Source: Actinomycetota bacterium
Lineage (GTDB): Bacteria > Actinomycetota > Thermoleophilia > Solirubrobacterales > 70-9
Assembly (NCBI GenBank): GCA_018268575.1
Contig: JAFDWF010000208.1
Span: 1,540-65,539, forward strand
Length of the DNA: 64,000 bases
Reading direction: 5' to 3'
Shown: positions 18,926-42,896 of the stretch, piece after piece
Position numbering within the stretch: position 1 is the first letter of the stretch
Layout: every line of letters starts with the position of its first letter
The notes under the pieces: generated by a model
Seen by the model: the letters and a program-made list of their open reading frames with translations, nothing else
Database searches by the model: none
Told to the model about the DNA's origin: nothing
Translations under genes and position numbers: made by a program

Positions 18926-20527
18926 CTACCTACCGGTCTGTTCGTAGGTGTGCTGGTACTGCGTCTTTTCGCCGGTGCCGTAGATCGATTCGAAGGTGCC
19001 TTGCGCGTTGCAGGGTGGGGTCGGCGCGCCGGCGGTGCCCGACTGGCCGCCGAAGGCGTACTGCTTGACGTGGTTGAGAAGTTCTTCGGCTTCTTTGTGG
19101 AGTTCTTCCTGCGTCAGTTCGGTCGTTTCTTCTTTTTGCGTTTCGGTGTTGAATTTCGTCCTCGTCTTCGGGATGCGTTCGAGGAATGCTGACGATTCGG
19201 CGGTGGTCGGGTTCAGGGTCACCGAGCCGCCCGCCGTGCACTGACGCGTGTCGTAGCCGGGCAGCGAGCCGTTCTTCAGCAGCTCGGCCCAGCCGGGCGG
19301 GCTGTAGGGGCTGTTGCGGTTGTTGGCCAGCCGGGTCGGATAGGTGGAGAGCGTTTCGGCGGTGATCGGGCCGATCACGCGCAGGTAGTGCTGGCCGTTC
19401 ACCAGGCGCGCGTGGAAGGTCGTGGCGAGGTTGCCGAAGGTCGCGGCGACGTCCTTCTTGTAGAGACCGAGGCCGGTGACCAAGGGGTTCAGGTTGCGGA
19501 CGAGCGGTTCCGAGGCCCGCAGCAGCGGCGGGAAGTCGTCGCGGAAGAGCTTGCGCAGGGCCGAGAAGCCGCTCGGCGCCTCCTTCTCCACCGCGGGCAG
19601 CGCTTCGAAGAGCTGCTTCGTTTCCGGCGCCAGCTTGCCGAAGGCGACCAGCGTCGGCGAGAGTTCTTCGGCCACCGGCACCAGCTGCCTGGAGAGCGGG
19701 TCGGCGTTTTCGGCGAAGCCCTGCAGGCGGGCGATGGTGAGGCGCGACTCGTCCTGGAAGGTCGGGAAGGCGCGGAAGAGGGCTTCGATGTCCTGGTTGC
19801 GCGCCGCCGTCGTCTTGAACAGCTCGTTGGAGCTGCGGATCAGGTCGGCGAGCTGGCCTTCGCGGCCGCGCAGCGATTCGAACGTCTTCGCCCCGTTGCT
19901 GAACAGCTGCGCGACCGCGACCTTCTGGCTGTTGAGGACGCGGAAGAGGTTTTCGAATTGCTGGAAGGTCGGTTCGAGGTTGCCGATCGCGTAGGAGAGG
20001 TTCTGGCCCTGTCCTTCGATCGCCACCGCCGCTTCCTGCATCCAGGTCTGGAAGGCGCGGCGGGTACGCGGGTCGAAGGCCTGGAAGATCTCGTCGAGCT
20101 GCACCGATTCGGTCACCTGCGCCGCCGGCAGCGTGGCGCCGTCCTCGAGCGGCGGTTCGCCGCTCGAGCCCGGGGAGAGTTCGACGTAGGTCTCGCCGAG
20201 CAGCGTCTTCGTCCGCAGCATCGCCCGGGTCGAGGCGGGCAACGGCGCGTATTTGTCGTCGATGTTCAGCAGCGCCATCGCTTCCTTGCCCTTGGGCCCC
20301 AGTTCGATGCTTTCGACTTTGCCGACGTCGACGCCGGAGATCCGCACGTCGGACTGTTCGGCCAGCTGCGAGGCCTCGGTGAACGGCACCTTGACCTGGT
20401 AGCTCCTCGCTTTGAACGGGGTCGGCCCGCCGAAGGTGATCCAGAGGAAGAGCAGGATCCCGAAGCAGGACAGGGCGAAGGCGGTGATCGCGAGCAGCTG
20501 CGTGGTGCTGGGGGCGCGCTTGCTCAT
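18926..20527 (-). CDS. MCE/MlaD-family protein (6th of 6)
   Basis: 533 aa. An N-terminal TM segment is followed by an MlaD domain ('VRISGVDVGKVESIEL', 'LRTKTLLGETYVELSPG'). The start overlaps the upstream stop. Confidence 0.9.
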   Translation of the reverse strand: MSKRAPSTTQLLAITAFALSCFGILLFLWITFGGPTPFKARSYQVKVPFTEASQLAEQSDVRISGVDVGKVESIELGPKGKEAMALLNIDDKYAPLPASTRAMLRTKTLLGETYVELSPGSSGEPPLEDGATLPAAQVTESVQLDEIFQAFDPRTRRAFQTWMQEAAVAIEGQGQNLSYAIGNLEPTFQQFENLFRVLNSQKVAVAQLFSNGAKTFESLRGREGQLADLIRSSNELFKTTAARNQDIEALFRAFPTFQDESRLTIARLQGFAENADPLSRQLVPVAEELSPTLVAFGKLAPETKQLFEALPAVEKEAPSGFSALRKLFRDDFPPLLRASEPLVRNLNPLVTGLGLYKKDVAATFGNLATTFHARLVNGQHYLRVIGPITAETLSTYPTRLANNRNSPYSPPGWAELLKNGSLPGYDTRQCTAGGSVTLNPTTAESSAFLERIPKTRTKFNTETQKEETTELTQEELHKEAEELLNHVKQYAFGGQSGTAGAPTPPCNAQGTFESIYGTGEKTQYQHTYEQTGR

Positions 20528-21969
20528 TCTTCCTTTTCCTTCGATTCGCAGTGGCCGGATTCGGTCTTGAACGGGACCGGGATTTCCGTCTTGCGGGGAA
20601 CGTTCACCAGGTTGAGAAGGGTTTCGAGGTACGGCTTCCCAAGGCTGCGTTGGCTTGCCGCGAGGCCGTACCCGAGGTCCGCGCCGGTGCAGCTGATCAT
20701 CAGGATGCTGCGCAGCGCCGGGCCACTCGCGTCCTGGAGGCTGAAGGCGCTGTTCAGGTTGTGGTTTGCCCAGGGCAGGTAGAAGAGGTAGCTCTGCGCG
20801 GCGCCCTTCGGCTTGTAGGCGAGCTCGTTGAAGAACGAGTTGAGGCCGCCGAGGCTGTTGCCGAAGCTGGTGACGGTCTTTTCCAGCGGTTCGGAGCCGC
20901 GCCTGGCGGCGCTCAACAGCGGCCGGATTTCGCGGGTGAAGGGCCGCACGCCGTCCTTGATCGGCGCGGTCGTTTCGCGGAAGAGCTTCTCGGTCGCCTT
21001 GAAGGCCGGGGTCGAGGCCTGCGCCTGGGGGATCAGCTTGGTCAGCGTCGGCAGCGCCACCCGGGAGAATTCGTTCGAGCTCGCCAACCCTTCCCCCGCC
21101 GTGCGCAGCGTCTCCGGGAACCGTTCGAAGGCTTCTTCGAGCGCCCGCTGCTGGTTGGCGAAGCTGCCGAGCGCCTTGTCGGATTCGCTGACGAAGCTGC
21201 GCACCTGGGCGTCGTGCCTGCCCAGTTCGGTGGTCAGCTCGCCGAAGTCGTGGATCACCTTGGCCAGCGCTTCGCGCCGTTCGGCGATCGGCTTGTTCAG
21301 CTTGGCGACGTACTCGACGAAGGGCGCGAAGCGGCGCAGCGCGTTGCCGAGCTGCTTGCCGCGGCCGCCGATCCCCTGCGCCCCGCCCGCGACCAGCAGC
21401 TGGATGTACTGGCGGGTGTCGGCGTCGAGGCTGGCGAGGAACTGGTCGAGCTGGACGTTCGGTTCGGTCTGCGAGAGCCCGAAGACGTGCCCTTCCTTCA
21501 CCTCGCCGGTGCCGCTGCCCGGTTCGACCTCGACGATCATGTCGTTGAGCCCGGTTTTCGGCCGCAGCAGGAACTGCGCGTCGGGGTGGATCAGTTCCAT
21601 GTACTTCGGCTCGATCTCCATCCCGACCACCGCGTGGCCGTCTTCGAGGCTTACCGAGGCGACCTTGCCGATCTGGATCCCGGCGATGTCGACGGCCTGG
21701 CCCTGGCCCGGGGTGACCGCCTGGGCGGTGGTGAACTCGGCCGAGATGTGGTCGAATTCTTCACCGACGACGGGGAGCCACGACGGCAGCGACGCTTTCT
21801 GCTGGGTGAAGATCCCGAGCATCATCACGATCCCGACGAAGGCGAGGACGAGGATCGCGATCGTGTCGGTGCGGTGGCCGCGCGCCTGCCGGCTGATCCA
21901 GGCGCGGAAGTGGCCGAGGCGGCTGCGCCGTTCCGGGGTCGGGGTGGGTCTCGGCGCCTGGGCGCTCAA
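20524..21969 (-). CDS. MCE/MlaD-family protein (5th of 6)
   Basis: Trimmed to TTG 21969 (TTGA overlap with the upstream stop). It has a TM segment 'IAILVLAFVGIVMMLGIF' and an MlaD block 'VDIAGIQIGKVASVSL'. Confidence 0.85.
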   Translation of the reverse strand: MSAQAPRPTPTPERRSRLGHFRAWISRQARGHRTDTIAILVLAFVGIVMMLGIFTQQKASLPSWLPVVGEEFDHISAEFTTAQAVTPGQGQAVDIAGIQIGKVASVSLEDGHAVVGMEIEPKYMELIHPDAQFLLRPKTGLNDMIVEVEPGSGTGEVKEGHVFGLSQTEPNVQLDQFLASLDADTRQYIQLLVAGGAQGIGGRGKQLGNALRRFAPFVEYVAKLNKPIAERREALAKVIHDFGELTTELGRHDAQVRSFVSESDKALGSFANQQRALEEAFERFPETLRTAGEGLASSNEFSRVALPTLTKLIPQAQASTPAFKATEKLFRETTAPIKDGVRPFTREIRPLLSAARRGSEPLEKTVTSFGNSLGGLNSFFNELAYKPKGAAQSYLFYLPWANHNLNSAFSLQDASGPALRSILMISCTGADLGYGLAASQRSLGKPYLETLLNLVNVPRKTEIPVPFKTESGHCESKEKEE

Positions 21970-23483
21970 TGGACCACTCCGGCGGTCGAGGGGGAGGCGG
22001 GGCCGACCTGCCCGAGGCCGCCGTTCACGTCCGGAACCGGGTTCGTGTAGCAGCGCACTTCGGGCTTGAACGGGGGCTGGGCGCCGAGCTGAGGCTGCGT
22101 CCCCAGCGGGTTTTCGGCGACGTGCGAGTAGTTGATCTTGTCGCTCAGCTGATTGCCGTGGACGTTCGGTTCGCCGACCAGGATCGGGCCGGCGGCGATC
22201 TGCGCGTGAAGCATCGGCCCATTGCCGTCGTAGTTCTGAGCAGCGCCGGCGAAGTTGGTCAGGTCGTAGAGGAATTCGCGGTAGTTCGGCTGGCCGGTGC
22301 TGAACCGGTCTCCGATCACCTCGTTGCCGGTCGGCACCAGCACCTTCGAGGTGCAGAGGCTGAGCCGGTTGATCTGCGGCAGCGTGTTCGCCTTGCCCGC
22401 CTGCGCCACCCCGGCCAGGCCCGGCGTCGATTCGGCCAAGAGCTTCGCCGTGCCGCCGGCCTCCTTGCCGGAGAGCAGCGGGCGGACCTGGGCGAGCCAC
22501 GGTTTCGAGGCGCTGATCAGGCCGGGCAGCTCGGCCACCGCCGGGGTCAGCTCGATCGCGTAGGTGCGCAGCGGCGGCAGCGACTTGTCGAGGCTGACGA
22601 GGGAGCTGTGCGCGGTCTTCAGCGTCGGCGCCAGCAGGTGGACCGTGGTCGCCAGGTTTTCCGACTGGTTGGCGAGCGCCCCGGTGAAGGTGTCGAAGTT
22701 TTCGATCAGCCCTTCCAGGTCCGCCTGGTTGGCGGCGAAAGCGGATGCGGTGCGGGCCGTCCCGGCGACCATCCGGGCGAGGTCGCCCGGTTCGGTCCCG
22801 GTCAGCGCCTGGGTCACCTGGGCGCTGTACTTGCCGGCTGCGCCGCCGTACTGGAAGGCCCGGTTCAGCGCTTCGCCACCGGAGAGCCCGTGCACCTGGG
22901 GCAGCTGGCCGAGATCTTCGGCGGCGGTCGGTTCGTGGGTCAGCGCGGTGCCGTAGCTCTCCAGCAGCCGGCCGAGGTCGGCGCGGACCGGCGACTGCAG
23001 CGCGGTCAGCACTTGGTCGATCTGCACCGCGGTGGAGGTGTGACTGACCGGGATCGTCCCGCCACTCGCCAGTTCGGGCGAGCTCGGGCTGCCCGGGTCG
23101 AGTTCGACGAAGTAGTTGCCTTCGAGGAAGATCCGCGGCCGGATCGAGGCGAAGGCGTCCTCGTGGATCGGCCTGCCGGTGTCGTCGACGGTGAAGGTGA
23201 CCGTGGTCGCGTCGCCGTCGCGTTCGGAGCCGATCACTTTGCCGACTTCCACCCCCGCGATCCGCACCGGCGATTTCGGCGCGATGTTGGCCGAGTTGGC
23301 GAAGGTCGCCTTCAGTTCGTAGCCGTAGCTGGTGAAGGGGATGTGTTTGGTGAAGGCTATGTAGGGGCCGATCGTGAAGACGAGGATGAAGATCACCGCG
23401 ATCAGCCAGTTCGGCACCCGCTCGCGCCCGCGGCGGCGCGGCTTCCTCCCCGGGGCGGCTCTCTTCGGCGCGGGCGTGCTCAT
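21966..23483 (-). CDS. MCE/MlaD-family protein (4th of 6)
   Basis: 505 aa with a TM segment 'WLIAVIFILVFTIGPYIAF' and 'VRIAGVEVGKVIG'. Confidence 0.9.
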   Translation of the reverse strand: MSTPAPKRAAPGRKPRRRGRERVPNWLIAVIFILVFTIGPYIAFTKHIPFTSYGYELKATFANSANIAPKSPVRIAGVEVGKVIGSERDGDATTVTFTVDDTGRPIHEDAFASIRPRIFLEGNYFVELDPGSPSSPELASGGTIPVSHTSTAVQIDQVLTALQSPVRADLGRLLESYGTALTHEPTAAEDLGQLPQVHGLSGGEALNRAFQYGGAAGKYSAQVTQALTGTEPGDLARMVAGTARTASAFAANQADLEGLIENFDTFTGALANQSENLATTVHLLAPTLKTAHSSLVSLDKSLPPLRTYAIELTPAVAELPGLISASKPWLAQVRPLLSGKEAGGTAKLLAESTPGLAGVAQAGKANTLPQINRLSLCTSKVLVPTGNEVIGDRFSTGQPNYREFLYDLTNFAGAAQNYDGNGPMLHAQIAAGPILVGEPNVHGNQLSDKINYSHVAENPLGTQPQLGAQPPFKPEVRCYTNPVPDVNGGLGQVGPASPSTAGVVH

Positions 23484-24934
23484 TTGCCGCCGCCTTCCGA
23501 TCCGGATTCGCCGCCCTTGCTTTCTTCCTGACCGCCCTTGACTTCGACGGTCGAGGTGCTGAAGGTCTTCGGCGCTGGGCCGATCACGGTCTTGCCGCGA
23601 ACGTATTCCGCGTTCCCCGCTTCACAGCCGCGCGCCTGGCCCGGCGCCCCGGTCGCGGGCAGCGGGTTGTAGTGCAGGTGGTTGCGCGGTTCAGGCCCGT
23701 TGGCCGGCGCCGCCGCTTGGCCGGACTCGCTGTTCGGGCCTTCCGGCGGGGCGAAGGAGATGAAGTTGAGCCAGCGGCCGTACTGGTTCCCCTGGCCCGA
23801 GGCGCTGGCGATCTGATCGAAGGTTTCGGCGAAGTAGTTGCAGGTGGTCTGGGCGGGGGTGATGTAGCGGAGCGGGGCTTCGAGGTTCTTGTTCAGGTCG
23901 GTGAGCAACTGCAGCCCGGTCATCGTGCCTTCGGCGTCCTGGAAGGCGACCAGCGCTTCCGCCGTCGGCAGCAGCTGGTTGTTCAGCACCGGCGAGTTGT
24001 TCAGCGCCGGGATTCCGGCGCGCAGCGATGCGGCGATGATCGGCGAGGTTTCCGCCAGCGCCTTGGCCCCCGGCCGCAGGGCGGTGAAGAAGCGTGCGGT
24101 GTCGTGCAGGAAGGGGTTGATCCGCGGCAGGCCGGCGTTGACCGTTTCCAGGGTCGGCGGGCCTTTTTCGATCGTTTCTTCGATGTAGGGGCTGGAGACG
24201 TGGGCGAAGGCGGCGAAGGTCTGGTCGAGGACGGCGAACATGCTCGCCTGCTCCTGGGCCACCGGGGCGACCGTCGCCGAGAGGTCCTCGAGCGCGCGGA
24301 AGAAGCCGCCGAAGTTCGTTCCCGGGGCGACCAGGGTCGCCGCCGCCGGTTCGCCTTCTTCGACCAGGCCGCGCAGCGCCCCGAGCGCCTCGTTCAGCTG
24401 CGGGCCGCGACCGGCGAGCGCGTTGCCGAAGCCCGCCAGGTTGCGCTGGATCGCCGTCCGCGTCGGCGCGTTGAACATGTCGAAGAATTTGTCGATGTCC
24501 CCCGGTTCGGGCTTCGCATAACGGACCGGGATCGTTTCGCCGGCCTTGAAGCCGACGGTCGAGCTGCCCGGGGTGATCTGCAGGTACTTGAGGCCGAGCG
24601 GCGATTTCGGCCGCACCTCGATGGTCGAGTCGTTGGGCACCGGTTCGGCGCTCTTGTCGAGGCTGAGGGTGATTTCGGCCTCGACTTTGCCGTTCTTCAG
24701 CTGCACCGGCACCACCGACTTGACCACGCCGACGCGGGCGCCGCCGATCCGCACCTCGTTCGCTTTGACCAGCGCGTCGGCGTTCGGCAGCCGCGCCTTG
24801 AGGTCGTAGGTGGAGACGAAGGGCAGCCCGTTGTTGGCGTTGTAGGCGAGGAAGACGGCGACGATGATCACCAGCACGGTCACCGCGCCGACCAGCACCG
24901 GGCTCACCGCGAGGCCGCCGTTGCGGTTCCTCAT
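23480..24934 (-). CDS. MCE/MlaD-family protein (3rd of 6)
   Basis: Trimmed to ATG 24934 (ATGA overlap). It has a TM segment 'VLVGAVTVLVIIVAVFLAY' and 'VRIGGARVGVVKSV'. Confidence 0.9.
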   Translation of the reverse strand: MRNRNGGLAVSPVLVGAVTVLVIIVAVFLAYNANNGLPFVSTYDLKARLPNADALVKANEVRIGGARVGVVKSVVPVQLKNGKVEAEITLSLDKSAEPVPNDSTIEVRPKSPLGLKYLQITPGSSTVGFKAGETIPVRYAKPEPGDIDKFFDMFNAPTRTAIQRNLAGFGNALAGRGPQLNEALGALRGLVEEGEPAAATLVAPGTNFGGFFRALEDLSATVAPVAQEQASMFAVLDQTFAAFAHVSSPYIEETIEKGPPTLETVNAGLPRINPFLHDTARFFTALRPGAKALAETSPIIAASLRAGIPALNNSPVLNNQLLPTAEALVAFQDAEGTMTGLQLLTDLNKNLEAPLRYITPAQTTCNYFAETFDQIASASGQGNQYGRWLNFISFAPPEGPNSESGQAAAPANGPEPRNHLHYNPLPATGAPGQARGCEAGNAEYVRGKTVIGPAPKTFSTSTVEVKGGQEESKGGESGSEGGGK

Positions 24935-26478
24935 CGTCCTTGCCCCAGGAGGTAGTTGAGCAGCGGTTCGGTGCCTTCGGCGCTCGTCGCTTCGCCCAGT
25001 TCCGGTTCGCCGGCGGCGGAGCCGCGCCGGGTCGGGGCCGTGCCTTCGGCCGAGTGGGCGGTGCCCAGCGTCGCGCCCGTGCCTGCCGGTTCCGTGCCAC
25101 CGTTTTCGGCGGTGAGGAGCCCGGCCTTTTCGCGCATCCGGTTGAGCAGCTCGACCAAGGCGCGGGCACTGGTTTTGGTCGGTTCGTTGGCCTGTGGACC
25201 GTGGTAGCGGGCCACGCAACCGCTGAACCCTTCGACGTTCGCTTCGTACTGCACACAGGTCGTCAGCGTCACCAGGGTGCGACCGAAGTGACCGAATTTG
25301 TCGAAGCCGTTGAGCGATGCCGCGGTGTTGTAGATCAGTTCGGTGAGGCCGTCCCAGCCACCGTTCTCCCTCAGGCTGACGAGGAGCTTCGCCAGTTCAC
25401 CCGTCGGCACTTCACCGGAGATCGCCAGGTTGCTCGCCTGCTTCACCACCGGAGTCGCTGCGGCGAAGACCGGGCCCGATTCTTCGCCCGCCTTGCCGAG
25501 GCTCTTTAGCGCCACCGTGGTCGCTTCCGAGAACGGGGTCAGCGTGCCGGTGGCGTCGGTCAGCGAGGGAGCGGCAACGCCGAGCTCTTCGAGCAGCGGC
25601 GTGCCCGCGTCGGAGAACGCCTTCAGGTTCACCATCGTCTGCCGGAACTCGGTCAGGAAGCGGGGGAACTTCTGCAGCGCCGCTTCCAGTTCGGGCCCGT
25701 GCGCGGCGGTCGCCCGGGCCGATTCGCCCGCGTGCGCGAGGAAGCCGACCACGCGTTCCTTTTCCAGCGTCAGCGGTTCGAGGATTTCCTGCGAGTCGGA
25801 GGCCAGCTGGGCGAGCTGGTCCTTCTGTTCGGTCAGCGTCTTGAACAGGAGGTCGACGTCGCGCAGGGTCGGGTTGGCCCGCTTGATCGTCGCTTCGAGG
25901 TCTTCGCCGCGGCCCGCCAGGCCCGCCCCGAGTTCGTTGAAGATCAGCCGGAAGCGCTGCGCGTAGGGGAGCGAGTTGATGTTGTTGATCAGGTCGGGGT
26001 CGACGCTGGTCGTGTTGCTGCCCAGCGGCAGCAGGTACTGGCCCGCGCCCGGTTCGCCTGCGGGGATCTGCTTCAGCGGCGGCGCCGGCTGCTGGCCCGG
26101 GGCCCGTGGCACGGTCGGCGTGCAGTTGACGTACTTCTCGCCGATCAGCGACTGCGGGCGGATTTCGCAGCTGGCGTCCTGGCGGAAGTCCTGGAAGCTC
26201 GGATCCGAGATTTCGAGCTCGATGATCGCCTTGCCGGGGACGTCCTTGAACTTGCCGTCTTCGATCGCGGTCGGTTCGCCCGGCAGCGAGACGCCGACCG
26301 ACTTGATTTCCCCGACGTTGGCGCCGGCGACGCGCACCTGCTCGCCGCTGACCATGAACGAGCCCTGGTCGAAGATCGCCCGCACGACGTAGCCGTTGCC
26401 CCCGCTGCCGCCCGCGATCAGGATGATCGCGACCACGATCGCCGCGACCACGGCGACCCCTGCGATCAGCTTCTTCAC
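24931..26478 (-). CDS. MCE/MlaD-family protein (2nd of 6)
   Basis: Trimmed to GTG 26478 (GTGA overlap). It has a TM segment 'LIAGVAVVAAIVVAIILIAG' and 'VRVAGANVGEIKSVGV'. Confidence 0.9.
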   Translation of the reverse strand: MKKLIAGVAVVAAIVVAIILIAGGSGGNGYVVRAIFDQGSFMVSGEQVRVAGANVGEIKSVGVSLPGEPTAIEDGKFKDVPGKAIIELEISDPSFQDFRQDASCEIRPQSLIGEKYVNCTPTVPRAPGQQPAPPLKQIPAGEPGAGQYLLPLGSNTTSVDPDLINNINSLPYAQRFRLIFNELGAGLAGRGEDLEATIKRANPTLRDVDLLFKTLTEQKDQLAQLASDSQEILEPLTLEKERVVGFLAHAGESARATAAHGPELEAALQKFPRFLTEFRQTMVNLKAFSDAGTPLLEELGVAAPSLTDATGTLTPFSEATTVALKSLGKAGEESGPVFAAATPVVKQASNLAISGEVPTGELAKLLVSLRENGGWDGLTELIYNTAASLNGFDKFGHFGRTLVTLTTCVQYEANVEGFSGCVARYHGPQANEPTKTSARALVELLNRMREKAGLLTAENGGTEPAGTGATLGTAHSAEGTAPTRRGSAAGEPELGEATSAEGTEPLLNYLLGQGR

Positions 26479-27875
26479 GGGCCGCCCACCTGCTCGGAGG
26501 GGTTGCATTCGGAGCTCGAGACGGCGCTGCCGCCGTGCGGCGGGTTGACGTAGGGGGCCGAGTTGTCGCCCGGGGCCTGCGCGGCGCCCCCCGGGCAGCG
26601 GGTCGGCGTCGCCGCCGGGTTGCCGAAGGGCACGAACTGTTCGGACTTCGGGATCGCCGTCAGCGTCCCGCCTTCGTCCTTGAAGACGTTCTCCAGCGCG
26701 GTCGCGCCGCGCACGTAGTTGCCATTGCCGTCGTAGTAGCCGCTGACCTGGCCGAGCTTCGAGATCCCGTTGAAGAAGTCGGGCGTGTAGGAGCGGATGA
26801 AGTTCAGCTGCGGCTGGAAGTCGGCGATCGCGGTCTGGGCGTGCGGGAAGGTGGTCGAGGCGAGCTGCTGGACGCTCGGCAGGATCGCCAGCAGTTCCCG
26901 CGAGTCGTTGTGCGGGCCGGGACGGTCCAGCGCCAGGGTGAGGTTGCGGGTGAAGGGGATGAACTTGGTCAGCACCGGGCGCAGTTCGGCGAGGAAGGGC
27001 GCCAGGTTCTTGGTCGCGGGCTTGGCCGTGTTGATCAGCGGTTCGACGTCGTCGAGCGCGGCGCGCAGGTTGACGAAGGTGGTGTTCGCCTGGCGCAGGA
27101 CCGGGGGCAGCTCCTGCAGCGATTCGTCGAGGGCGACGTTCTGGGTGTTGATCGCGTCGAAGGCGGTGGTCGCGTTGCCGATCGCGCTCGAGAGCTGGGA
27201 GCCGCGGTTGGCGACCGCCGTGGTCAGCTTCGCCGAGCTGACCAGGAACCGCGAGAGCAGCTGTTCGTCGGCGTTCAGTTCGGCGGCGAAGTTGGTGGCC
27301 CGGTTCAGCGCCGTGCCGAAGTATTCGTAGCTTTCGTTCGCTTCGTTGCCGCGCCCGGCGTAGATCTCCCCGTTGCCCTTGATGAAGTTCTGCAGCCCTT
27401 CGCGCACCTTCGGCGGGAAGCTGTTGAAGAGCTGGTCGATGTCGACGGGAGTCGTGGTCGAGGAGAGGCCGAGCGTCGCCCCTTCTTCCAGCGACGGGCT
27501 GCTGTTCGGGCCGGGGCTGATCGAGAGGTAGTGGTTGGCGACCCCGGAGAGCGAGGTCGCCCGGATCACCGCGGTCGTCCCTTCGTGCAGTTCCTGTTCG
27601 ACTTCGACGTTGACTTCGGCCAGATTTTCCGGGCTCAGTTCGATGCTCGAGACGGTCCCCACCGGGGAGCCGCCGATCAGCACCTGGTTGTCGTTGACGA
27701 GCTGGCCCGCGTTCTGGAACATGAACGTGTACTTGTGGCCACCGCCGCCGGTGAAGAGGAGGATCGCAAGCACGATCACGACGACCAGCAGCGCCCCGAT
27801 CGCCGCCAAGCGGGCTGGGGTGGTCCCTCGGCTCGGAGCCGAGCGTTTCTCCTCGCCTTGGGGTTTCGCAGCCAC
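26475..27875 (-). CDS. MCE/MlaD-family protein (1st of 6)
   Basis: 466 aa with a GTG start, a TM segment 'LAAIGALLVVVIVLAILLF' and 'VLIGGSPVGTVSSIEL'. Confidence 0.9.
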   Translation of the reverse strand: MAAKPQGEEKRSAPSRGTTPARLAAIGALLVVVIVLAILLFTGGGGHKYTFMFQNAGQLVNDNQVLIGGSPVGTVSSIELSPENLAEVNVEVEQELHEGTTAVIRATSLSGVANHYLSISPGPNSSPSLEEGATLGLSSTTTPVDIDQLFNSFPPKVREGLQNFIKGNGEIYAGRGNEANESYEYFGTALNRATNFAAELNADEQLLSRFLVSSAKLTTAVANRGSQLSSAIGNATTAFDAINTQNVALDESLQELPPVLRQANTTFVNLRAALDDVEPLINTAKPATKNLAPFLAELRPVLTKFIPFTRNLTLALDRPGPHNDSRELLAILPSVQQLASTTFPHAQTAIADFQPQLNFIRSYTPDFFNGISKLGQVSGYYDGNGNYVRGATALENVFKDEGGTLTAIPKSEQFVPFGNPAATPTRCPGGAAQAPGDNSAPYVNPPHGGSAVSSSECNPSEQVGGP

Positions 27876-28065: not shown

Positions 28066-28854
28066 ATGCGCAAACGTTTCACTCTGATCGCGGGCCTCGC
28101 CGCCGTGGTGGCGATCGCGATCCCGGTTTCGGCCGCGATCGCCGGGGAAACCGTGACCGGGCCCGACGGCAACACGCAGTCGATCGAAGCGACGATCACG
28201 CCAAAGGCCCTCTACAAGAAGACCTTCTCGCCGGCGACGCTGAGCGTCGACGTCAAGACCGGCTCCTCGAGCGGCGGGATCCCGAGCCCGGCCGTCCACG
28301 ACGTGATCGATTTCGACAAGAACCTGACGCTGGCGACCAAGGGCCTGCCGACCTGCAACGCGTCGCAGCTGCAGAACACCTCGACCGAAGTCGCCGAAAA
28401 AGCCTGCGGCAAGGCCAAGATCGGCTCCGGCGAAGCGCAGACGCTGCTGCCGCTGGGCACCCTCTACAACGAGCCGACCAAGGTGACCGCCTTCAACGGC
28501 GCCCCGCAGGGCGGCAAGCCGGTGGTGCTGCTGCACGCCTACGGCACCTCGCCGGTGCAGACCACGCTGGTCTTGGTCGGCACGGTCAGCAACCTGAACA
28601 AGGAAGGCTACGGGCCGCGCCTCGACGTGACGATCCCGCCGCTGGCCGGCGGCGTCGGCGTGATCACCGACTTCCAGGTCAAGATCAACAAGACCTGGAC
28701 CTACAAGGGCAAGAAGATGAGCTTCATCTCGGCCAAATGCCCGGCCTCGAAGAAGCTCAAGTACCGCGGCGCCTTCACCTACAAAGACGGCACCACGATC
28801 GAAGCCACCCACAGCCAGGCCTGCGCGCCGAAGGCCGAACCGAAGAAGAAGTAG
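28066..28854 (+). CDS. Secreted four-Cys protein, paralog 1 (unassigned family)
   Basis: ATG 28066 has AGGAG upstream. The signal-peptide-like N terminus is 'MRKRFTLIAGLAAVVAIAIPVSAAIA'. It aligns end to end with the ORFs at 32249, 33013, 33759 and 42084 (GLPxC-x16-C, FNG..G.P, two Cys pairs). Confidence 0.8.
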   Translation: MRKRFTLIAGLAAVVAIAIPVSAAIAGETVTGPDGNTQSIEATITPKALYKKTFSPATLSVDVKTGSSSGGIPSPAVHDVIDFDKNLTLATKGLPTCNASQLQNTSTEVAEKACGKAKIGSGEAQTLLPLGTLYNEPTKVTAFNGAPQGGKPVVLLHAYGTSPVQTTLVLVGTVSNLNKEGYGPRLDVTIPPLAGGVGVITDFQVKINKTWTYKGKKMSFISAKCPASKKLKYRGAFTYKDGTTIEATHSQACAPKAEPKKK

Positions 28855-28890
28855 TCCGCCGACGCGAGGGTGCTGCCGTAACCAGACGTC

Positions 28891-31800
28891 CTAGACGTCG
28901 AAGCGCGGCAGCACCCGCGCCAGCGGGCGCGGCAGCCACCAGACGCGGTCGCCGAGCAGCAGCATCAGGGCCGGCAAGAGGACGATCCGCACCACGGTGG
29001 CGTCGAGCACCACCGCGACGGTAAGCCCGATCCCGAGCTGGCTCACCGTCGCCACCGGTGCGGCGGCGAAGACGATGAAGACGGCGAGCATGATCGCCGC
29101 GGCGCCGGTGATCACCCGGGCCGTCTTCTCCAGCCCGAAGCGGACCGCGGTCGCGTTGTCCTCGCCGGCGTCGTAGCGCTCCCGCATCCGGGTCAGCAGG
29201 AAGACCGCATAGTCGATCGAGAGGCCGAAGACGACGGCGAAGATCATGCAGGCGCCGACCGCGTCGACGTAGTGGTGGCCGCCCAGCGGCCAGCTCGCGG
29301 GCACGTGGAAGAGCAGGGTGAGGATGCCGAAGGCGACCGCCACCGTGAGCAGGTTGAGGCCGACCGCGATCGCCGCCAGCGGCAGCGCCCGCAGCACCAC
29401 CACGAGGACCAGGAAGGTGACCAGGGTGATCGTCGCGATGATCCAGGGGATCCGGTCGCGGGTGATCTGGTTGTAGTCGTTCAGCTGCGCGGCGCTGCCC
29501 GCCACCCCGGTCGACAGTTCCGCATCTTGGCCCAGTTCGCCCGCCGCGGTGGCGAGCTTCTGGTTCAGTTCGATCGAGCCGGGCGAGTTGAATTCGTACT
29601 TCGAGATCACCAGGATCGAGGCCGCCTGGCCGCCGTGGTTCAGGTCGATCGTCGCCCCCACCTTTTCGCGCGTCGCGGGCGGCGCCCCGTCGAGCGCCGA
29701 GAGGACGAAGTAGCCGGAGTTGAAGAGCCCGGGCGAGGCTTCCTGGACCTTGCCCGCACGACGGCGGATCTTCGACTTGCCTTCGAGCACCTTGACGCTC
29801 GCTTCCGCCAGCCCGGTTTCCAGCGGTTCGGATTTCGGCACCCCCGCGGCAAGGCTCTGTTCCAGCGCTTCGGCGCCGCCGACCAGCTTGCCGAGGCCGG
29901 TGGCAAGCGCGGTGGCGCCACTGCTCAGGCGTTCGATCCCCTTGCCCAGGCCGCCCGCCGCCGTGGCCAGCTTGTTCGCCCCGTGGGCGAGCGTGTTCGT
30001 CCCTTTGTGGATCTTGTAAAGGCCTTCGATCAGCCGGCCCATACCACGCCCGACACGGTGCAATTCGCGAACCGACGAGTAGATGAAGGACGACGTCCTC
30101 TGATTGAGTTCGGCATCCTCGCCCAGCCGTTCCCGCAGCCCTTCGAGTTCGGCGGGAAGGCCCGCGTAGCCAGCTTCGTAGGGTGCCCCGGTCGCCGGGT
30201 CGGTGCCGGTCACCGCCGCCAGCGCGCCCTGCACCGATTCGAGCGTCGCCGCCGCGGCCGGGTCGCCCGGCGCCGCTTCCTTCAGCTTCGCTTCCGCAGC
30301 CTGCAGCTTCTCCACGCTTGCCGCCACCGGTGCGAGGAGGCGTGGCAGCGTTTCGTTCTGGTCGGCACGCAGCGCGCGCAGCTGCTCGCGCTGCGCTTTT
30401 CCACCGTTGTAGTGGAGGGAGCTCATGATCGAATTGATCCCGCTGACCCTGACCTGCTGGGCGCCGATCGCCGCTTCCAGCTCGGCTTCGACCAGTTTTT
30501 CGGAGCCTTCGGCAAACCGTTCCAGGGCCTTGATCGCCCGCTCGCTGCCGCCCGCCGCCCGGGCCAGGCCGCGGGCGATCAGCTGCGCGCCTTCGGTCGC
30601 GTGTTCGGAGCCGAGCGCGAGGAGGCCGGCGCCGTCGCTCGCTTCGCCGATCCCCGCCCGCAGTGCCCCGACCCCGCCCGCGGCGACGTTCAGTTCCTTG
30701 CCCAGGTGGCCGAGCTGCTTGACCGGGCCGATGTTCCCGTGCGAGGAGAGCACCGCGTTGCCGAGTTCCTGCAGCGGTTCGACCCGCTTGGTCGCCGCCT
30801 GCGGGCCGATCACCAGGTTCACCCCTTCGAAGGAGGCGACCTTGTGCTGGAAGTGTTCGATCGCCGCCATGCTGCCGGGGTCGGTGATCGGCCCGTTCGC
30901 GTTGGCGGCGACGACCTGGAAGGGCGCTTCCCAGCCGGGGCCGATCGTGTCGGCGATCAGTTCGGCGTCCTTGCGCGCGGGGGCGTCCCTGGCGAGCTGT
31001 TCGGTGCTCGGCGGGCCGAGCTTCAGCCCCATCGCGGGCGCCGCCAAGGCGAGCAGGATCGCCCCGATCACCACCGCCGCCACCAGCGGTCGGCGCAGCG
31101 CCGCGTTGACGAAGCGCATCACGCCGGAGCGCTCGGCGCTCGCCGGCCGGCCGATCCGCCAGCGGTTCACGTTCTCCCCGGCCAGGGTGAGGATCGCCGG
31201 GCCGACCAGGGTCGCCACGGTGACGCTGAGGACGACCACCATCGCCACCGTCCCCGCCAGCGAGATCAAGAGCGACCCGGGCAGGATCAGCAGCGAGACG
31301 AGCATCGAGAGCAGCAGGGTCGAGCCCGCGAAGGCGACGGTCCGCCCGGCGTGTCGCCTGGTTCTTCGCGCCGCCTCGACCGGCTCGGCCCCGGTCGCCA
31401 GCTCCTCGCGGAAGCGCGAGACCATCAGCAGGGCGTAGTCGACCCCCAGCGCCAGCCCGATCATCGTGCAGACGGTCAGCGCGAAGGCGTCGATCGAGAA
31501 CCAGGAGGTGAGGAAGTAGAGGATCCCACGCGAGGAGAGCACCGTGATCGCGCCGAAGCCGAGCGGGATCACGGCCGCGATCGGCGAGCGGAAGACCAGC
31601 AGCAGGACGATCAGCAGGATCGGCAGGGCGACCAGCTCGTCGTGCTCGGCGGAGTCGATCGATTCCTGCTGCAGGGCGCGGGAGAGAGTGGCGAAGCCGG
31701 TCTGGGTCACCGCCACCGGCGCTTTCACCGATTCGTTCAGCAGTTCTTCCAGGTGCGGCACGGTTTCGTTGACCGCGGTTTTCGTGCCGACCGGGAAGTT

Positions 31801-32205
31801 GGCGATGATCAGCGCCTTCCCCGGGCTCGGCCGCAGCGCCCCGACCGAGCCGTTGTCCCAAGGGGAAAGCGTCGACACCCCCGGTTCTTCGCGCAGCGCT
31901 TCGACCAGCTGCGGGCCCTGCTTTTCCACCGCGGCCCGCGGGCCGCGCAGCAGGATCACGAACGGGGTCGAGGGCCCGAAGTGCTCTTCCAACATCGCGT
32001 TGGCTTCCGCCGAGGCGCTGCCGGGGACGTCGAGCGTGGTCGGGTCGAGCCGCGAGGTGACGCCGGTGCCGATCACCGCCAGGGCGGCGAGGACGATCGC
32101 CGCCGCGAGCAGGATCTCGCGCGGGTGCCGCAGCAGCCACGGCTGCCGCCTCCGGGAACCCGAGGCCCGGGACCGCTCCCCTCCCCTGCTCCTGCTGCTT
32201 CCCAC
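28891..32205 (-). CDS. MMPL-family (RND superfamily) transporter with large XXXLXXG heptad-repeat insert
   Basis: 1104 aa. Two MMPL-type TM bundles are present ('GLALGVDYALLMVSRFREE', 'FGLSIDYAVFLLTRMRE'). They flank an insert of about 350 aa containing 'TNTLAHGANKLATAAGGLGKGIERLSSGATALATGLGKLVGGAEALEQSLAAG'. The GTG start at 32205 is uncertain. Confidence 0.85.
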   Translation of the reverse strand: MGSSRSRGGERSRASGSRRRQPWLLRHPREILLAAAIVLAALAVIGTGVTSRLDPTTLDVPGSASAEANAMLEEHFGPSTPFVILLRGPRAAVEKQGPQLVEALREEPGVSTLSPWDNGSVGALRPSPGKALIIANFPVGTKTAVNETVPHLEELLNESVKAPVAVTQTGFATLSRALQQESIDSAEHDELVALPILLIVLLLVFRSPIAAVIPLGFGAITVLSSRGILYFLTSWFSIDAFALTVCTMIGLALGVDYALLMVSRFREELATGAEPVEAARRTRRHAGRTVAFAGSTLLLSMLVSLLILPGSLLISLAGTVAMVVVLSVTVATLVGPAILTLAGENVNRWRIGRPASAERSGVMRFVNAALRRPLVAAVVIGAILLALAAPAMGLKLGPPSTEQLARDAPARKDAELIADTIGPGWEAPFQVVAANANGPITDPGSMAAIEHFQHKVASFEGVNLVIGPQAATKRVEPLQELGNAVLSSHGNIGPVKQLGHLGKELNVAAGGVGALRAGIGEASDGAGLLALGSEHATEGAQLIARGLARAAGGSERAIKALERFAEGSEKLVEAELEAAIGAQQVRVSGINSIMSSLHYNGGKAQREQLRALRADQNETLPRLLAPVAASVEKLQAAEAKLKEAAPGDPAAAATLESVQGALAAVTGTDPATGAPYEAGYAGLPAELEGLRERLGEDAELNQRTSSFIYSSVRELHRVGRGMGRLIEGLYKIHKGTNTLAHGANKLATAAGGLGKGIERLSSGATALATGLGKLVGGAEALEQSLAAGVPKSEPLETGLAEASVKVLEGKSKIRRRAGKVQEASPGLFNSGYFVLSALDGAPPATREKVGATIDLNHGGQAASILVISKYEFNSPGSIELNQKLATAAGELGQDAELSTGVAGSAAQLNDYNQITRDRIPWIIATITLVTFLVLVVVLRALPLAAIAVGLNLLTVAVAFGILTLLFHVPASWPLGGHHYVDAVGACMIFAVVFGLSIDYAVFLLTRMRERYDAGEDNATAVRFGLEKTARVITGAAAIMLAVFIVFAAAPVATVSQLGIGLTVAVVLDATVVRIVLLPALMLLLGDRVWWLPRPLARVLPRFDV

Positions 32206-32248
32206 CCGTGGTAGTTTGGCGGTCAGGGGCTACGGGAGGAGCGAACCT

Positions 32249-33016
32249 ATGCGGAAGAATGTGTTAAGGACGTCAGTCCTGACCGTCGTCGCGCTGTTGG
32301 CGATGAGCGGAGCGGCATTGGCGATCGTGTTACGAACCGGTCCGATCGAAGTCGTCGGCGAAGGCGGCTTCTCGCCGACGACGCTGCCGAAACAGCACAC
32401 GGCACCGATCATCCTGCACGGCGAAGGCCGGATCGGGACCACCGACGGCTCGCTGCCGCCGATCCTGAAGACGCTCACGGTCTGGTTCGACAAACACGGC
32501 GCGGTGGTGACGAAAGGCCTGCCCTACTGCACCAAAGGCAAGCTGGCGGCGACCACCACCGCGGTCGCGCGCAAGGTCTGCGCGGGCTCGATCGTCGGCG
32601 AGGGATCCGGCACCGCCCTGATCGCCTTCCCCGAACAGAAGCCGTTCAAGGCGAGCTCGCCGATCACGATCTTCAACGCGGCGCCGCACGACGGCAACCC
32701 GACCGTGCTCGCCCACGCCTACCTGAGCGTGCCCGCGCCGACCACCTACATCGTCCCGGTGGAAATCCAGAAGGTGCACAACGGGCCGTTCGGCTTCCGC
32801 ACCGAAGCGCAGATCCCGAAGATCGCGGGCGGGTCCGGGATTCCCCTCGAAGGACGCCTGACCATCGGCAAAAAATGGACCTACAAGGGCAAGAAGCTGA
32901 GTTATGCCAACGCCAGCTGCCCGAGCGGCAAGTTGCAGGCGAAAGTGGAAACCGAATTCACCGACACGACCCGGCTCAGCGGCGTGATCCTCAAACACTG
33001 CACGGGAGTCAATTGA
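32249..33016 (+). CDS. Secreted four-Cys protein, paralog 2
   Basis: ATG 32249 has GGGAGGAG upstream. The signal-like N terminus is 'VLTVVALLAMSGAALA'. It carries the paralog-family blocks. Confidence 0.8.
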   Translation: MRKNVLRTSVLTVVALLAMSGAALAIVLRTGPIEVVGEGGFSPTTLPKQHTAPIILHGEGRIGTTDGSLPPILKTLTVWFDKHGAVVTKGLPYCTKGKLAATTTAVARKVCAGSIVGEGSGTALIAFPEQKPFKASSPITIFNAAPHDGNPTVLAHAYLSVPAPTTYIVPVEIQKVHNGPFGFRTEAQIPKIAGGSGIPLEGRLTIGKKWTYKGKKLSYANASCPSGKLQAKVETEFTDTTRLSGVILKHCTGVN

Positions 33017-33777
33017 GGCGCCGGTTCGCAGCGGTCGGGCTCGCCGCGGTGGCGGCGGCGCTCGTCCTGGCCGCCGCGGCGGTCGCGGTCAGCACCCAGA
33101 TCGGCAACCTGAAGGTCAGCGCCACGGCGGAATTCATGCCGCGCGCCTTCCCCGCAAAGGGCACGCTGCCCGCCCGGTTCAGCAGTATCGTGCGGATCAA
33201 GACCGTGAACGGCGAACAGCCGCCGCCGCTGAAGACGCTGATCTTCGAATTCGACAAGCACGGCAAGCTGAACTTCAAGGGCATGCCCACCTGCACCGTC
33301 GCCCAGCTCGAAGGGACGACGCCGGCGGAGGCGCGCAAGCGCTGCGCCGGGGCGCTGCTCGGCACCGGCATCGGCAAGGCGCGGGTCGAATACCCGGGCA
33401 AGGCGCCGTTCAAGATCAGCTCGCCGATCTCGATCTTCAACGCGCCGCCGGAAGGGGGCGAGCCGACGCTGATCGCCCACGCCTACGAGACCGTGCCCTC
33501 GCCGCAGGCGCTGCTGGTCCCGTTCACGATCGAAAAGATCAACCACGGCCGCTACGGCTACCGGACCGAGCTCGAACTGCCGCCGATCGCCGAAGGCCAC
33601 GGGGCGGCGATCTTCGCCGAAGCCTCCTTCGGCCGCACTCGAAAAGAACACGGCCAGGAGGTCGGCTACGTCGAAGCCGAATGCTCCGGCGGCCGCCTGC
33701 AGGTCCACGGCGAGATGATCTTCGCCGAAAGCCACCTCGAATCGCTGCTCACCTCGCCATGTCACACCGAAGGCTGA
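33013..33777 (+). CDS. Secreted four-Cys protein, paralog 3
   Basis: TTG 33013 overlaps the upstream stop (TTGA). It has a hydrophobic N terminus and the paralog-family blocks. Confidence 0.75.
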   Translation: MRRRFAAVGLAAVAAALVLAAAAVAVSTQIGNLKVSATAEFMPRAFPAKGTLPARFSSIVRIKTVNGEQPPPLKTLIFEFDKHGKLNFKGMPTCTVAQLEGTTPAEARKRCAGALLGTGIGKARVEYPGKAPFKISSPISIFNAPPEGGEPTLIAHAYETVPSPQALLVPFTIEKINHGRYGYRTELELPPIAEGHGAAIFAEASFGRTRKEHGQEVGYVEAECSGGRLQVHGEMIFAESHLESLLTSPCHTEG

Positions 33778-34544
33778 GAAGGGGCCTCAGGCGCAGCCTC
33801 CCCTTCCTCGCGATCCTGCTCGCCTTCGCCATCGCCGCCGCCACCGCGAGTGCCACCGCGATGGTCGAAACGCGGGAACTGCGGATCGAACTGAACGCCG
33901 CCTTCCAGCCCCGCGACCTGCCGGTCCACAGCTTCGCCCCGGTCCGGTTCGAGGGCTCGCTCGAGATCTCAAAGCCCGGCGGCGGAGTGCCCCCGGCGCT
34001 GCAGCAGATCGTCCTCGACTTCGACCGCGACGGCCGCCTCGACGTCTCCGGCCTGCCCACCTGCGCGCCCGAATCGATCGCCCAGGCGAGCGTCGACGAA
34101 GCGCGGGCGATCTGCAAGGGCGCGATCGTCGGCACCGGCGAGATCGAAGCCCTGGTCGCCCTCCCTTCCGGCCCGGTCCCGACCAGCTCGCCGCTCACCC
34201 TCTTCAACGGACCGCGCCTCGAAGGCAAGCCGACCGTGATCGTCCACGCCCGCACCACGGTGCCGACGCAGCAGACCTACGCCTTCACCGTGCCGATCGA
34301 AAAGCGCCGCGGCGAATTCCGCTACCGGGCGACCGTGAATATCCCGCCGCTAGCCGGCGGCCTCGGCGCGGTCACCAAGATCAGCGTCAAGGTCGGCCGC
34401 CGCTACAGCGCCGGGGGGGTGAAGCGCAGCTACGTCGCCGCCCGCTGCAGCGACCACATCCTGCGCAGCCACGGCGCCTTCAGCTTCGCGGGCGGCCTGG
34501 TGATCGAAGGCGTCGGCCTGGAAAAGTACTGCGCCCAGCGCTGA
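33759..34544 (+). CDS. Secreted four-Cys protein, paralog 4
   Basis: ATG 33759 overlaps the upstream gene by 19 nt. The signal-like N terminus is 'LPFLAILLAFAIAAATASA'. It carries the paralog-family blocks. Confidence 0.75.
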   Translation: MSHRRLRRGLRRSLPFLAILLAFAIAAATASATAMVETRELRIELNAAFQPRDLPVHSFAPVRFEGSLEISKPGGGVPPALQQIVLDFDRDGRLDVSGLPTCAPESIAQASVDEARAICKGAIVGTGEIEALVALPSGPVPTSSPLTLFNGPRLEGKPTVIVHARTTVPTQQTYAFTVPIEKRRGEFRYRATVNIPPLAGGLGAVTKISVKVGRRYSAGGVKRSYVAARCSDHILRSHGAFSFAGGLVIEGVGLEKYCAQR

Positions 34545-34596: not shown

Positions 34597-34669
34597 GGGC
34601 CGTTAGCTCAGTTGGTAGAGCAGGAGACTCTTAATCTCAAGGTCGTAGGTTCGAGCCCTACACGGCCCA
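34597..34669 (+). tRNA. tRNA-Lys (anticodon CTT)
   Basis: I folded a 73-nt cloverleaf by hand: acceptor GGGCCGT/ACGGCCC, D arm GCTC-AGTTGGTA-GAGC, anticodon loop CTCTTAA, and T arm GTAGG-TTCGAGC-CCTAC. No CCA is encoded. Confidence 0.9.
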
Positions 34670-34683
34670 CTCGCTCCGGTCGG

Positions 34684-42083: not shown

Positions 42084-42896
42084 ATGCCGCGGGGGCTACG
42101 ACTTGTGACGTTTTCGACTACCGGGTTGATCGCCGTGCTCGGGGTGGCCTTGGCCTGGGGGCTACCGGCCGGGGGGGCGAGGGCCGAGACGGTGCGACAG
42201 GGCGGACTGCAGGTCTCCTTCGGCGGCAGCGTCGCGCCGCAGCTGCTACCGCGCAGCGGCTCCACCCCGGTCTCGGTGGCGATCCGGGGGAGCGTCGGCG
42301 CGCTCGCCGGCGGCCCGCCGCCGTCCCTGCGCCGAATCGTCGTCGAAGTCAACCGGATCGGGGTGCTCGACCGGCGGGGCCTGCCGGTCTGCCCGGTCGG
42401 TCGGCTGCGCGCCGCGAGCACCGCCGACGCGCTCGCCGCCTGCGGGCGCGCCCTGGTCGGCGCAGGCCACGTCGGCGGCGTCATCGTCCTGCCCGAACAG
42501 GCGCCCTCGGAATTCGGCGGTCGCGTGGTCGCCTTCAACGGCAGGCTGGCCGACGGCCGGCCTGCGATCCTCGCCCAGCTCTACACCACCCGCCCCGCGC
42601 CGCTCGCCTTCGTCCTCGCCTTCGCGATCGGCCCCGCCCACGGCGCCTACGGCACCCGCCTGGTCGCCATCGTGCCCGCGAAGACGCGGCGCACCGCCCA
42701 CATCACTTCGTTCTCCCTGCGCCTCCACCGCCTCTTCGACGTCGACGGCGAACGGCACAGCTACCTGAGCGCCGGCTGCCCGGCGCCGGCAGGCTTCACC
42801 AGCGCCACCTTCCCGCTGCTGCGCGCCAGCTATGGCTTCGTCGGCGAGGCGACGGTCAGTGACACGCTGGTGCGAACTTGCCGCGTCGCGCCTTGA
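42084..42896 (+). CDS. Secreted four-Cys protein, paralog 5
   Basis: Track ORF 41577..42896 was trimmed to ATG 42084. The signal-like N terminus is 'GLIAVLGVALAWGLPAGGARA'. It is the most divergent member but keeps GLPVC-x16-C, 'AFNG..DGRP' and the C-terminal Cys pair. Confidence 0.7.
   Translation: MPRGLRLVTFSTTGLIAVLGVALAWGLPAGGARAETVRQGGLQVSFGGSVAPQLLPRSGSTPVSVAIRGSVGALAGGPPPSLRRIVVEVNRIGVLDRRGLPVCPVGRLRAASTADALAACGRALVGAGHVGGVIVLPEQAPSEFGGRVVAFNGRLADGRPAILAQLYTTRPAPLAFVLAFAIGPAHGAYGTRLVAIVPAKTRRTAHITSFSLRLHRLFDVDGERHSYLSAGCPAPAGFTSATFPLLRASYGFVGEATVSDTLVRTCRVAP

Follow-up and report, generated by a model that had tools for sequence, protein, structure and literature searches.

The window analyzed here, a stretch of 64,000 nucleotides (64 kb) from a bacterium of the order Solirubrobacterales, contains five paralogous genes, given the working names par1 to par5, which lie around a gene for an MMPL-family resistance-nodulation-division (RND) transporter and six Mce genes. 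They code for a protein family that is large and is new to curated databases and to the Protein Data Bank (PDB). The par proteins very probably represent an exported, non-enzymatic, new family of beta modules. A wider reading, in which they are envelope binding modules and par1-4 are possibly accessory proteins of the MMPL/Mce system, is in our judgment evenly balanced, and the role as MMPL/Mce accessory subunits, taken by itself, is put forward only tentatively.

Sequence, likely export and predicted fold of the par proteins

The five proteins can be aligned end to end with 27-39% identity. Their pairwise BLASTP scores (78-174 bits, E 1e-21 to 1e-58) are far above chance, so that, judged by sequence, these are real homologous genes, and a profile search of the six-frame translation found exactly five copies in the window. 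Ribosome-binding sites of the GGAG type precede par1, par2, par3, and par5, and that of par2 is a strong GGGAGGAG at 32234-32241. An upstream GTG at 28024 would lengthen the par1 open reading frame (ORF), but the ATG at 28066 was taken as the start because the orthologs begin with MRKRF or MHKRF and a GGAG ribosome-binding site is present. Orthologs at 54-97% identity are known from more than 60 species (par1, 75-93%; par2, 54-97%; par5, 70-89%). In addition, small contigs of an RNA-labelled soil run span par2, par3, the par3/par4 junction, and par5, which is weak evidence. The mature proteins are net basic (+1 to +14), and the C terminus of par1 is a lysine-rich tail, PKAEPKKK, that is conserved in its orthologs.

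Each of the five proteins has exactly four cysteines. The first two are spaced by 16 residues in all five, and the last two by 25-33 residues, with 33 in par5. A wider sample came from an exhaustive HMMER search against 1.84 billion representatives of 50% identity clusters, and cysteines were counted in 121 full-length domains from the top 150 representatives. Exactly four cysteines were present in 95 of these domains and the 16-residue first spacing in 92, while the second spacing was bimodal, with 67 domains at 26 residues and 41 at 33 (108 together). We infer that the cysteines are paired 1-2 and 3-4 in two disulfides. As a working definition, the family has a mature domain of ~230 aa with the motifs G(L/M)P.C-x16-C..(A/S).(V/I/L)G.G and FN(G/A)....G.P and a C-terminal cysteine pair 25-33 residues apart, and all five proteins of the window conform to it.

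The invariant residues across a 70-sequence alignment are Gly, Pro, Cys, Ala, and one Asn only, and neither this alignment nor the five paralogs contain an invariant Asp, Glu, His, or Ser. This restriction indicates that the par proteins are not enzyme-like and points to a binding or scaffold role. A secreted enzyme, such as a hydrolase of wall or environmental polymers, would agree with the predicted secretion of the proteins, with the sulfatase and lactonase-like propeller genes near par5, and with one weak Foldseek match to a glutamic peptidase (neprosin, E 0.05). However, Asp, Glu, His, and Ser are not among the invariant residues, the HAY motif shared by other paralogs is missing from par4 (HAR) and par5 (QLY), and no enzyme family was matched. 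An enzymatic function is thus hardly credible.

The N termini of the par proteins consist of a K/R-rich stretch (RKR, HKR, RK, RGR, KR, or HR in the orthologs), a hydrophobic core, and an A-x-A motif. The two alanines, A24 and A26 in par1, do not vary among the five paralogs, and the orthologs of all five keep the A-x-A pattern. In the AlphaFold2 (AF2) models, disorder or low confidence is limited to residues 1-23 of par2 and 1-25 of par1, and the fold begins just after. These N termini are likely Sec-type signal peptides with the features of Sec and signal peptidase I substrates, in which a basic stretch and a hydrophobic core of 12-20 residues precede small residues at -3 and -1, and the conserved A-x-A suggests probable cleavage by signal peptidase I and release outside the membrane. 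None of the five paralogs has a cysteine before residue 94, so there is no lipobox of the form L-[AS]-[GA]-C and the par proteins do not belong to the bacterial lipoproteins. Export by the Tat system, suggested by the nearby tatAC genes, was rejected since the twin-arginine motif S/T-R-R-x-F-L-K is not conserved in any paralog class; tatAC near the par genes is part of the general synteny described below.

Database comparisons gave no family assignment. Pfam returned nothing for par1-par5 even at E <= 10, the NCBIfam matches all lay far below threshold (the best at 17 bits, where the cut-off is 200), and a profile of 70 sequences matched no PDB chain. AF2 produced confident models, with a predicted local distance difference test score (pLDDT) of 89.3 and a predicted template modeling score (pTM) of 0.85 for par2, and of 88.4 and 0.83, respectively, for par1, with the same order of secondary-structure elements in both. 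The predicted mature domain of ~230 residues is all-beta, with ~18 strands joined by tight hairpins; the length of many strands is 10-15 residues. Two short helices are modeled between Cys1 and Cys2, and Cys3 and Cys4 are placed at the start and the end of the last three strands. Foldseek found nothing below E = 1e-3 against the PDB for either model, or against BFVD for the par2 model. The weak neighbors that recurred were TTHA1873 of Thermus thermophilus (7wwo), the N-domain of the adhesin Sgo0707 (4igb), cohesin (2vo8), CppA (5xcb), macroglobulin receptor-binding domains, and Gram-positive pilins. The first four are large antiparallel beta-sandwich or jelly-roll-like extracellular binding domains, but the matches are poor (E 1.7e-3 to 0.3; query-normalized TM 0.27-0.35; root-mean-square deviation (rmsd) 6.6-9.4 Å; 8-12% identity) and the par proteins have no LPXTG signal. 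They also differ from sortase-anchored pilins and MSCRAMM adhesins in ending 1-9 residues past the last cysteine, and the fold similarity to these is weak (query-normalized TM 0.15-0.35). The models therefore indicate at most a similar fold class, not membership, and the literature on TTHA1873, the top Foldseek match, was uninformative. The predicted fold would thus be a large antiparallel beta sandwich or barrel without a solved relative.

These results confirm what the first-pass annotation of the window had described from the sequence, namely five paralogs of 254-270 aa that align over their full length, the fixed cysteine spacings, signal-peptide-like N termini without a lipobox, and the lack of a recognizable family. 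Its description of the family as four-cysteine and beta-rich is also supported by the wider domain sample and, as far as models can tell, by AF2. It had further proposed a substrate-binding or shuttle role for the MMPL/Mce machinery. In mycobacteria, carriers of the LppX/LprG/LolA type have a functional link to MmpL or to other exporters. A soluble carrier of this kind, whose beta domain encloses a hydrophobic cavity and ferries the MMPL/Mce substrate across the wall zone, would be consistent with the location of the par genes beside MMPL and mce genes, with the predicted export, size (~230 residues), and mostly beta structure of the proteins, and with the long up-and-down strands of the models. 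In addition, small barrels that bind lipids or ligands (nitrobindin, Rv2717c, ApoD, LolA; E 0.003-0.07) are numerous in the Foldseek list of the par2 model. However, these barrel matches have TM values of 0.14-0.25 and an rmsd above 10 Å, and they are mostly gone with the par1 model. The match to LolA has E 0.039 and TM 0.16, which is no meaningful similarity, and LppX and LprG are not among the 50 listed matches of either model. Unlike such carriers, the par proteins lack both a lipobox and a Pfam match to LppX_LprAFG or LolA, and they have two conserved cysteine pairs of the disulfide type. Their domain also occurs as a C-terminal propeller module and in tandem, which is unusual for carriers. 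The comparisons lend no structural support to a shuttle role, and we consider a lipid carrier improbable.

Family size, range and domain architectures

The HMMER search returned 2,684 representatives at E <= 1e-3 and 658 at E <= 1e-30, and the source annotations seen were "hypothetical" or the name of a fused propeller only. A scan of GTDB (one genome per species) with the 70-sequence alignment gave 209 confirmed hits, of which 80 loci were returned. Because the search patterns favor par2-like genes, these 80 loci center on par2 and on its sister clade. All 80 are titled Solirubrobacterales, Conexibacteraceae, or unclassified actinobacterial metagenome-assembled genomes, in line with the earlier suggestion that the family is lineage-specific. 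The sequencing runs that hold the locus are mostly soil metagenomes, and mine and plant samples also occur. A lineage-specific secreted paralog family beside envelope transporters has precedent as a kind. The conserved signature proteins reported for the class Thermoleophilia (PMC6544083) are likewise lineage-restricted conserved hypothetical proteins of the same bacterial group. The par proteins differ in being multi-copy paralogs rather than a single-copy marker.

Among the top 150 cluster representatives, the single-domain architecture is the most common (120/150). At least four are genuine tandem pairs, in which the second domain has no signal peptide. In 14 proteins of ~460-920 aa the par domain is C-terminal, and those scanned have an NHL/SBBP-type propeller as their N-terminal part, in many cases together with an InlB B-repeat. 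The subtype fused to NHL propellers is the par5 subtype. A homolog search with par5 itself returned orthologs alone and no further domain architectures. That the par domain is modular, occurring alone, in tandem, or at the C terminus of NHL-propeller surface proteins, is thus shown or nearly so. Some apparent fusions (P0123, P0298, and P0307) look like frameshift or gene-calling artefacts. The idea that the NHL propeller fused to par5-like domains corresponds to a neighbor of par5 in the window, either the propeller at 44327-45904 or the protein at 42993-44330 (a Rosetta-stone relation), was rejected because no significant BLASTP similarity was found.

A family of secreted proteins of 950-1400 aa was observed beside the par5 subtype in six loci (L060, 12407-19922; L063, 18-7611; L078, 2130-8785; L082, 7167-10004; L085, 152-8004; L087, 4720-8004). 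The genes lie directly upstream of par5-like or NHL-par fusion genes, with a 4-nt overlap in the three called loci L082, L085, and L087. The proteins are mostly without a Pfam match, share 35-60% identity, and have many conserved cysteines and lysine-rich C-terminal tails. Weak repeated HMMER matches to the G-L-P-x-C...C pattern raised the possibility of diverged par repeats within them, which was rejected at an hhalign probability of 1.9%.

Linkage of par2 to MMPL and competing explanations

The gene par2 is divergent from MMPL in all 62 species loci compared, and in most of these loci the two starts are projected to lie 42-43 bp apart. In the intergenic region of the window, a conserved 13-nt sequence, TGGTAGTTTGGCG, at 32209-32221 abuts the MMPL GTG and lies ~30 nt upstream of the par2 ATG. 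It is kept down to 54% protein identity in a 28-sequence alignment. By its sequence it may be a candidate extended -10 element for par2 (TGn-TAGTTT, compared with TGn + TAnnnT). A strict sigma-70 consensus scan called no promoter in the intergenic region, and the TGGTAGTTTG motif was detected by comparative alignment, not by promoter scan. The MMPL-adjacent par2 genes form one clade in a neighbor-joining tree.

The par2, par3, and par4 genes follow one another without gaps. The TTGA junction and the 19-nt overlap already noticed in the first-pass annotation are real, the 4-nt par2/par3 overlap recurring in 36 other species loci and the 19-nt par3/par4 overlap in 41. The gene calls of one related locus (L001) have the same par2/par3 overlap. 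As par4 has no ribosome-binding site of its own, translational coupling with par3 is suggested. In addition, par1 and par2 have diverged at about the same rate as their neighbors: their median identities were 80 and 84%, compared with 79 and 78% for MMPL and mceA, in closer species, and 59 and 62%, compared with 62 and 67%, in more distant species. A second locus of one genome (L063) contains a par5-like gene, a par2-like gene, and, 63 bp downstream on the same strand, a paralogous MMPL gene, indicating that par-MMPL adjacency is kept in a different orientation.

These observations can be arranged in a tentative mechanism. The par domain would be a disulfide-braced, non-catalytic binding or scaffold module outside the cytoplasmic membrane that binds a protein or an envelope polymer. 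The par2, par3, and par4 proteins would be produced in a constant ratio from a single operon with translational coupling, whose promoter-like element abuts the MMPL start codon. They might come together on the outer face of the membrane and serve the MMPL (RND) exporter, perhaps along with the downstream Mce proteins, as accessory subunits. With its basic charge and lysine-rich tail, par1 may be a surface-retained variant at the MMPL/mce junction, and par5 may be a member of a subtype used with other surface proteins. An accessory role is favored for par2-4 because of the fixed proportions expected from the conserved coupling, the promoter-like element shared with the MMPL start, and the strict linkage within the par2 clade.

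In this role, par2-4 would be functionally analogous to MmpS with MmpL4 and MmpL5, but not homologous to it. The central extracytoplasmic insert of MMPL comprises ~330 aa with xxxLxxG heptad repeats (TIGR03057) and resembles the coiled-coil stalks described for MmpL4, MmpL5, and MmpL10 (PMC12803245, PMC12183618). The MmpS proteins are accessory proteins of mycobacterial MmpL4 and MmpL5, as in the (MmpS4)3-(MmpL4)3 complex (PMC12803245). MmpS and the par proteins alike are small, extracytoplasmic, and encoded next to an RND transporter of the MMPL family that has a long coiled-coil or heptad insert, and several subunits per transporter are plausible in the present case as well, given three coupled par genes. 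The differences are considerable. No par protein has any Pfam match, and so none to PF05423. MmpS keeps an uncleaved membrane anchor, whereas the par proteins have predicted cleavable A-x-A signal peptides and are about twice its size. Moreover, par2 is not upstream of MMPL in the same operon in any of the 62 loci, the L063 pair being the only co-directional one, and many par copies have no MMPL neighbor.

Several findings weigh against an accessory role in MMPL/Mce transport. The whole 25-kb region with mce, MMPL, tatAC, menaquinone genes, and qcr is syntenic across the order, so that adjacency alone is weak evidence of a common function and could reflect inherited gene order. The par genes are on the strand opposite to the MMPL and mce genes and outside their operon. 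They are also not strictly required at the locus, since par1 is absent from ~18 species loci (and thus dispensable) and par3 from four. In the sister clade of par2 in the neighbor-joining tree, 16 of 17 copies have no MMPL nearby and lie beside genes for saccharopine dehydrogenase, an MpaB/Lcp-type oxygenase, FtsH, an MFS transporter, TetR, and MerR. The par5-type genes and propeller fusions are co-transcribed with the 950-1400 aa secreted proteins, not beside MMPL, and are found next to ftsEX-ctpB or clustered with PKD, TIG, Big_13, and S8-peptidase genes, while a tandem-domain member is located among amidotransferase and aldehyde dehydrogenase genes. Furthermore, the weak Foldseek likenesses are to adhesin-, cohesin-, and pilin-type sandwiches and TTHA1873, and include no known transporter accessory protein. 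Occurrence independent of MMPL and mce had been named in the first-pass annotation as what would speak against its proposal. Such independence was found for par5, for the 16 of 17 sister-clade copies, for the tandem forms, and for the NHL fusions, but not for the par2 clade, which is beside MMPL in 62 of 62 loci.

The main rival explanation draws on the same observations. The par domain could be a general structural, adhesion, or anchoring module of the cell surface, with a wall polymer or other surface proteins as its binding partner. The stand-alone copies would then be abundant wall-associated proteins, and the position beside MMPL would be historical. This would account for the C-terminal placement of the domain in NHL/SBBP-propeller proteins with InlB B-repeats, for its co-transcription or clustering with genes for large secreted proteins and for PKD, TIG, Big_13, and S8-peptidase proteins, and for the macroglobulin-type sandwiches among the weak structural matches, along with the adhesin, pilin, and cohesin ones. 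The basic mature proteins, the lysine-rich tail of par1, the many unrelated contexts of the copies, and the synteny of the whole region are also consistent with it. However, a purely historical position does not readily agree with the conservation of the head-to-head par2-MMPL spacing and the shared motif, even at ~55% protein identity, or with the second par-MMPL pair in a different orientation. The par proteins also have neither an LPXTG signal nor a Pfam match to known wall-binding domains. We regard a general surface module as possible, although less than probable.

A further possibility is raised by the mce genes. In other actinobacteria, mce genes occur in yrbEAB-mceA-F operons, and the MMPL-mce arrangement is unusual by comparison. 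No MlaE/YrbE permease or MceG ATPase was found among the ORFs of the window that were scanned. In the ~18 species without par1, the MMPL stop is only 125-240 bp from the mceA start, suggesting an MMPL-mce operon. Because a YrbE/MlaE gene is missing from the window and mce directly follows MMPL where par1 is absent, par2-4 might be imagined as a heteromeric extracytoplasmic cap or adaptor on MMPL, with MMPL instead of a YrbE/MceG ATP-binding cassette engine as the partner of the six Mce proteins. Such a Solirubrobacterales-specific hybrid RND-Mce lipid transport machine, to which the par family would contribute the lineage-specific part, is highly improbable in our estimate. The par proteins themselves are distinct from Mce/MlaD proteins, since PF02470 is present in the neighboring mce genes and absent from them. 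The features compared thus rule out membership of MmpS, LppX/LprG/LolA, Mce/MlaD, the lipoproteins, the Tat substrates, and the sortase-anchored pilins and adhesins. The reading of the par family as envelope binding modules, with par1-4 as possible accessory proteins of MMPL/Mce, is the one that we retain.

Gene neighborhood and implications

The features of the window that bear on the par genes are listed in Table 1. The gene map agrees with the earlier placement of one copy between the mce genes and MMPL and of another beside qcrA and the sulfatase cluster. par1 is divergent from mceA and convergent with MMPL, on the strand opposite to both. The sixth Mce gene (~24931-26480) was inferred from an ORF and from mceA-like tblastn matches in related loci.

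Table 1. Location and properties of par genes and neighboring features in the window
Feature	Position	Strand	Properties
par1	28066..28854	+	262 aa; predicted exported four-Cys beta protein; based on ORF, alignment, orthologs, and AF2 model
par2	32249..33016	+	255 aa; leads the par2-par3-par4 operon; starts head to head with MMPL
par3	33013..33777	+	254 aa; TTG start overlapping the par2 TGA stop (TTGA)
par4	33759..34544	+	261 aa; 19-nt overlap with par3; no own ribosome-binding site
par5	42084..42896	+	270 aa; most divergent copy; divergent from the Rieske gene (qcrA)
Divergent intergenic region	32206..32248		43 bp, from MMPL GTG start to par2 ATG start
MMPL-family RND transporter	28891..32205	-	1104 aa; PF03176 E 4.6e-64; NCBIfam MmpL3/actII/HAE3 below curated cut-offs; TIGR03057
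Six consecutive Mce (MlaD-domain) genes	18926..27875	-	Downstream of MMPL; PF02470 in five
tRNA-Lys(CTT)	34597..34670	+	53 bp downstream of par4; marks the operon end

The gene order is kept in ~60 of the 80 species loci and runs from the six mce genes through (par1), MMPL, par2, par3, par4, tRNA-Lys, a gene for a 268-aa protein, tatC/tatA, polyprenyl synthase, ubiE, and qcrCBA to par5. The tRNA-Lys gene follows par4 in all 11 related loci checked (11/11), and an Rfam scan of the intergenic regions found this tRNA only. No convincing gene was seen in the region behind it (34597-36012), the distance from par4 to the 268-aa gene varies from ~0.1 to 8 kb between genomes, and the metagenome depth collapses at 35015-35615. 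This stretch looks like an integration or variable hotspot. The 268-aa protein (36013-36819, minus strand) is conserved (43-81% identity), with an N-terminal membrane segment and a coiled-coil-like body rich in Ala, Glu, and Lys; it has no Pfam or NCBIfam match, and its gene adjoins tatC in nearly every related locus that reaches that far.

On the other side of the region, par5 is followed by genes for a secreted protein without a family match, a beta-propeller, and a sulfatase. The secreted protein (42993-44330, plus strand) has 445 aa and a signal peptide and matches neither Pfam nor NCBIfam; in closer relatives it is found downstream of par5 with 68-82% identity. The propeller that comes next is lactonase/NHL-like. 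Behind the sulfatase gene, an ORF at 47653-48573 (plus strand) codes for a protein whose N-terminal domains resemble AbiEi antitoxin and whose C terminus resembles a DUF559 endonuclease; this gene is probably a mobile or defense-related insertion. Four loci without par3 and par5 (L066, L070, L077, and L080; ~18200-20750) carry a second MMPL gene beside the Rieske gene, at the place of par5. This gene is 45-48% identical to the MMPL gene of the window in three of the four, L066 not being scored.

Solirubrobacterales are abundant soil actinobacteria that have hardly ever been cultured, and little is known of how their envelope is built; a literature search found nothing specific on MmpL or Mce proteins in this order. 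The par family, conserved about as well as the neighboring transporter, represents a sizeable and well-defined piece of unexplored soil-bacterial biology. Should par1-4 indeed act together with MMPL and Mce, they would represent a new type of accessory subunit of RND-type lipid exporters; otherwise, the par family defines a new extracellular binding module. Either way, it merits an entry in the profile databases and an experimental structure.

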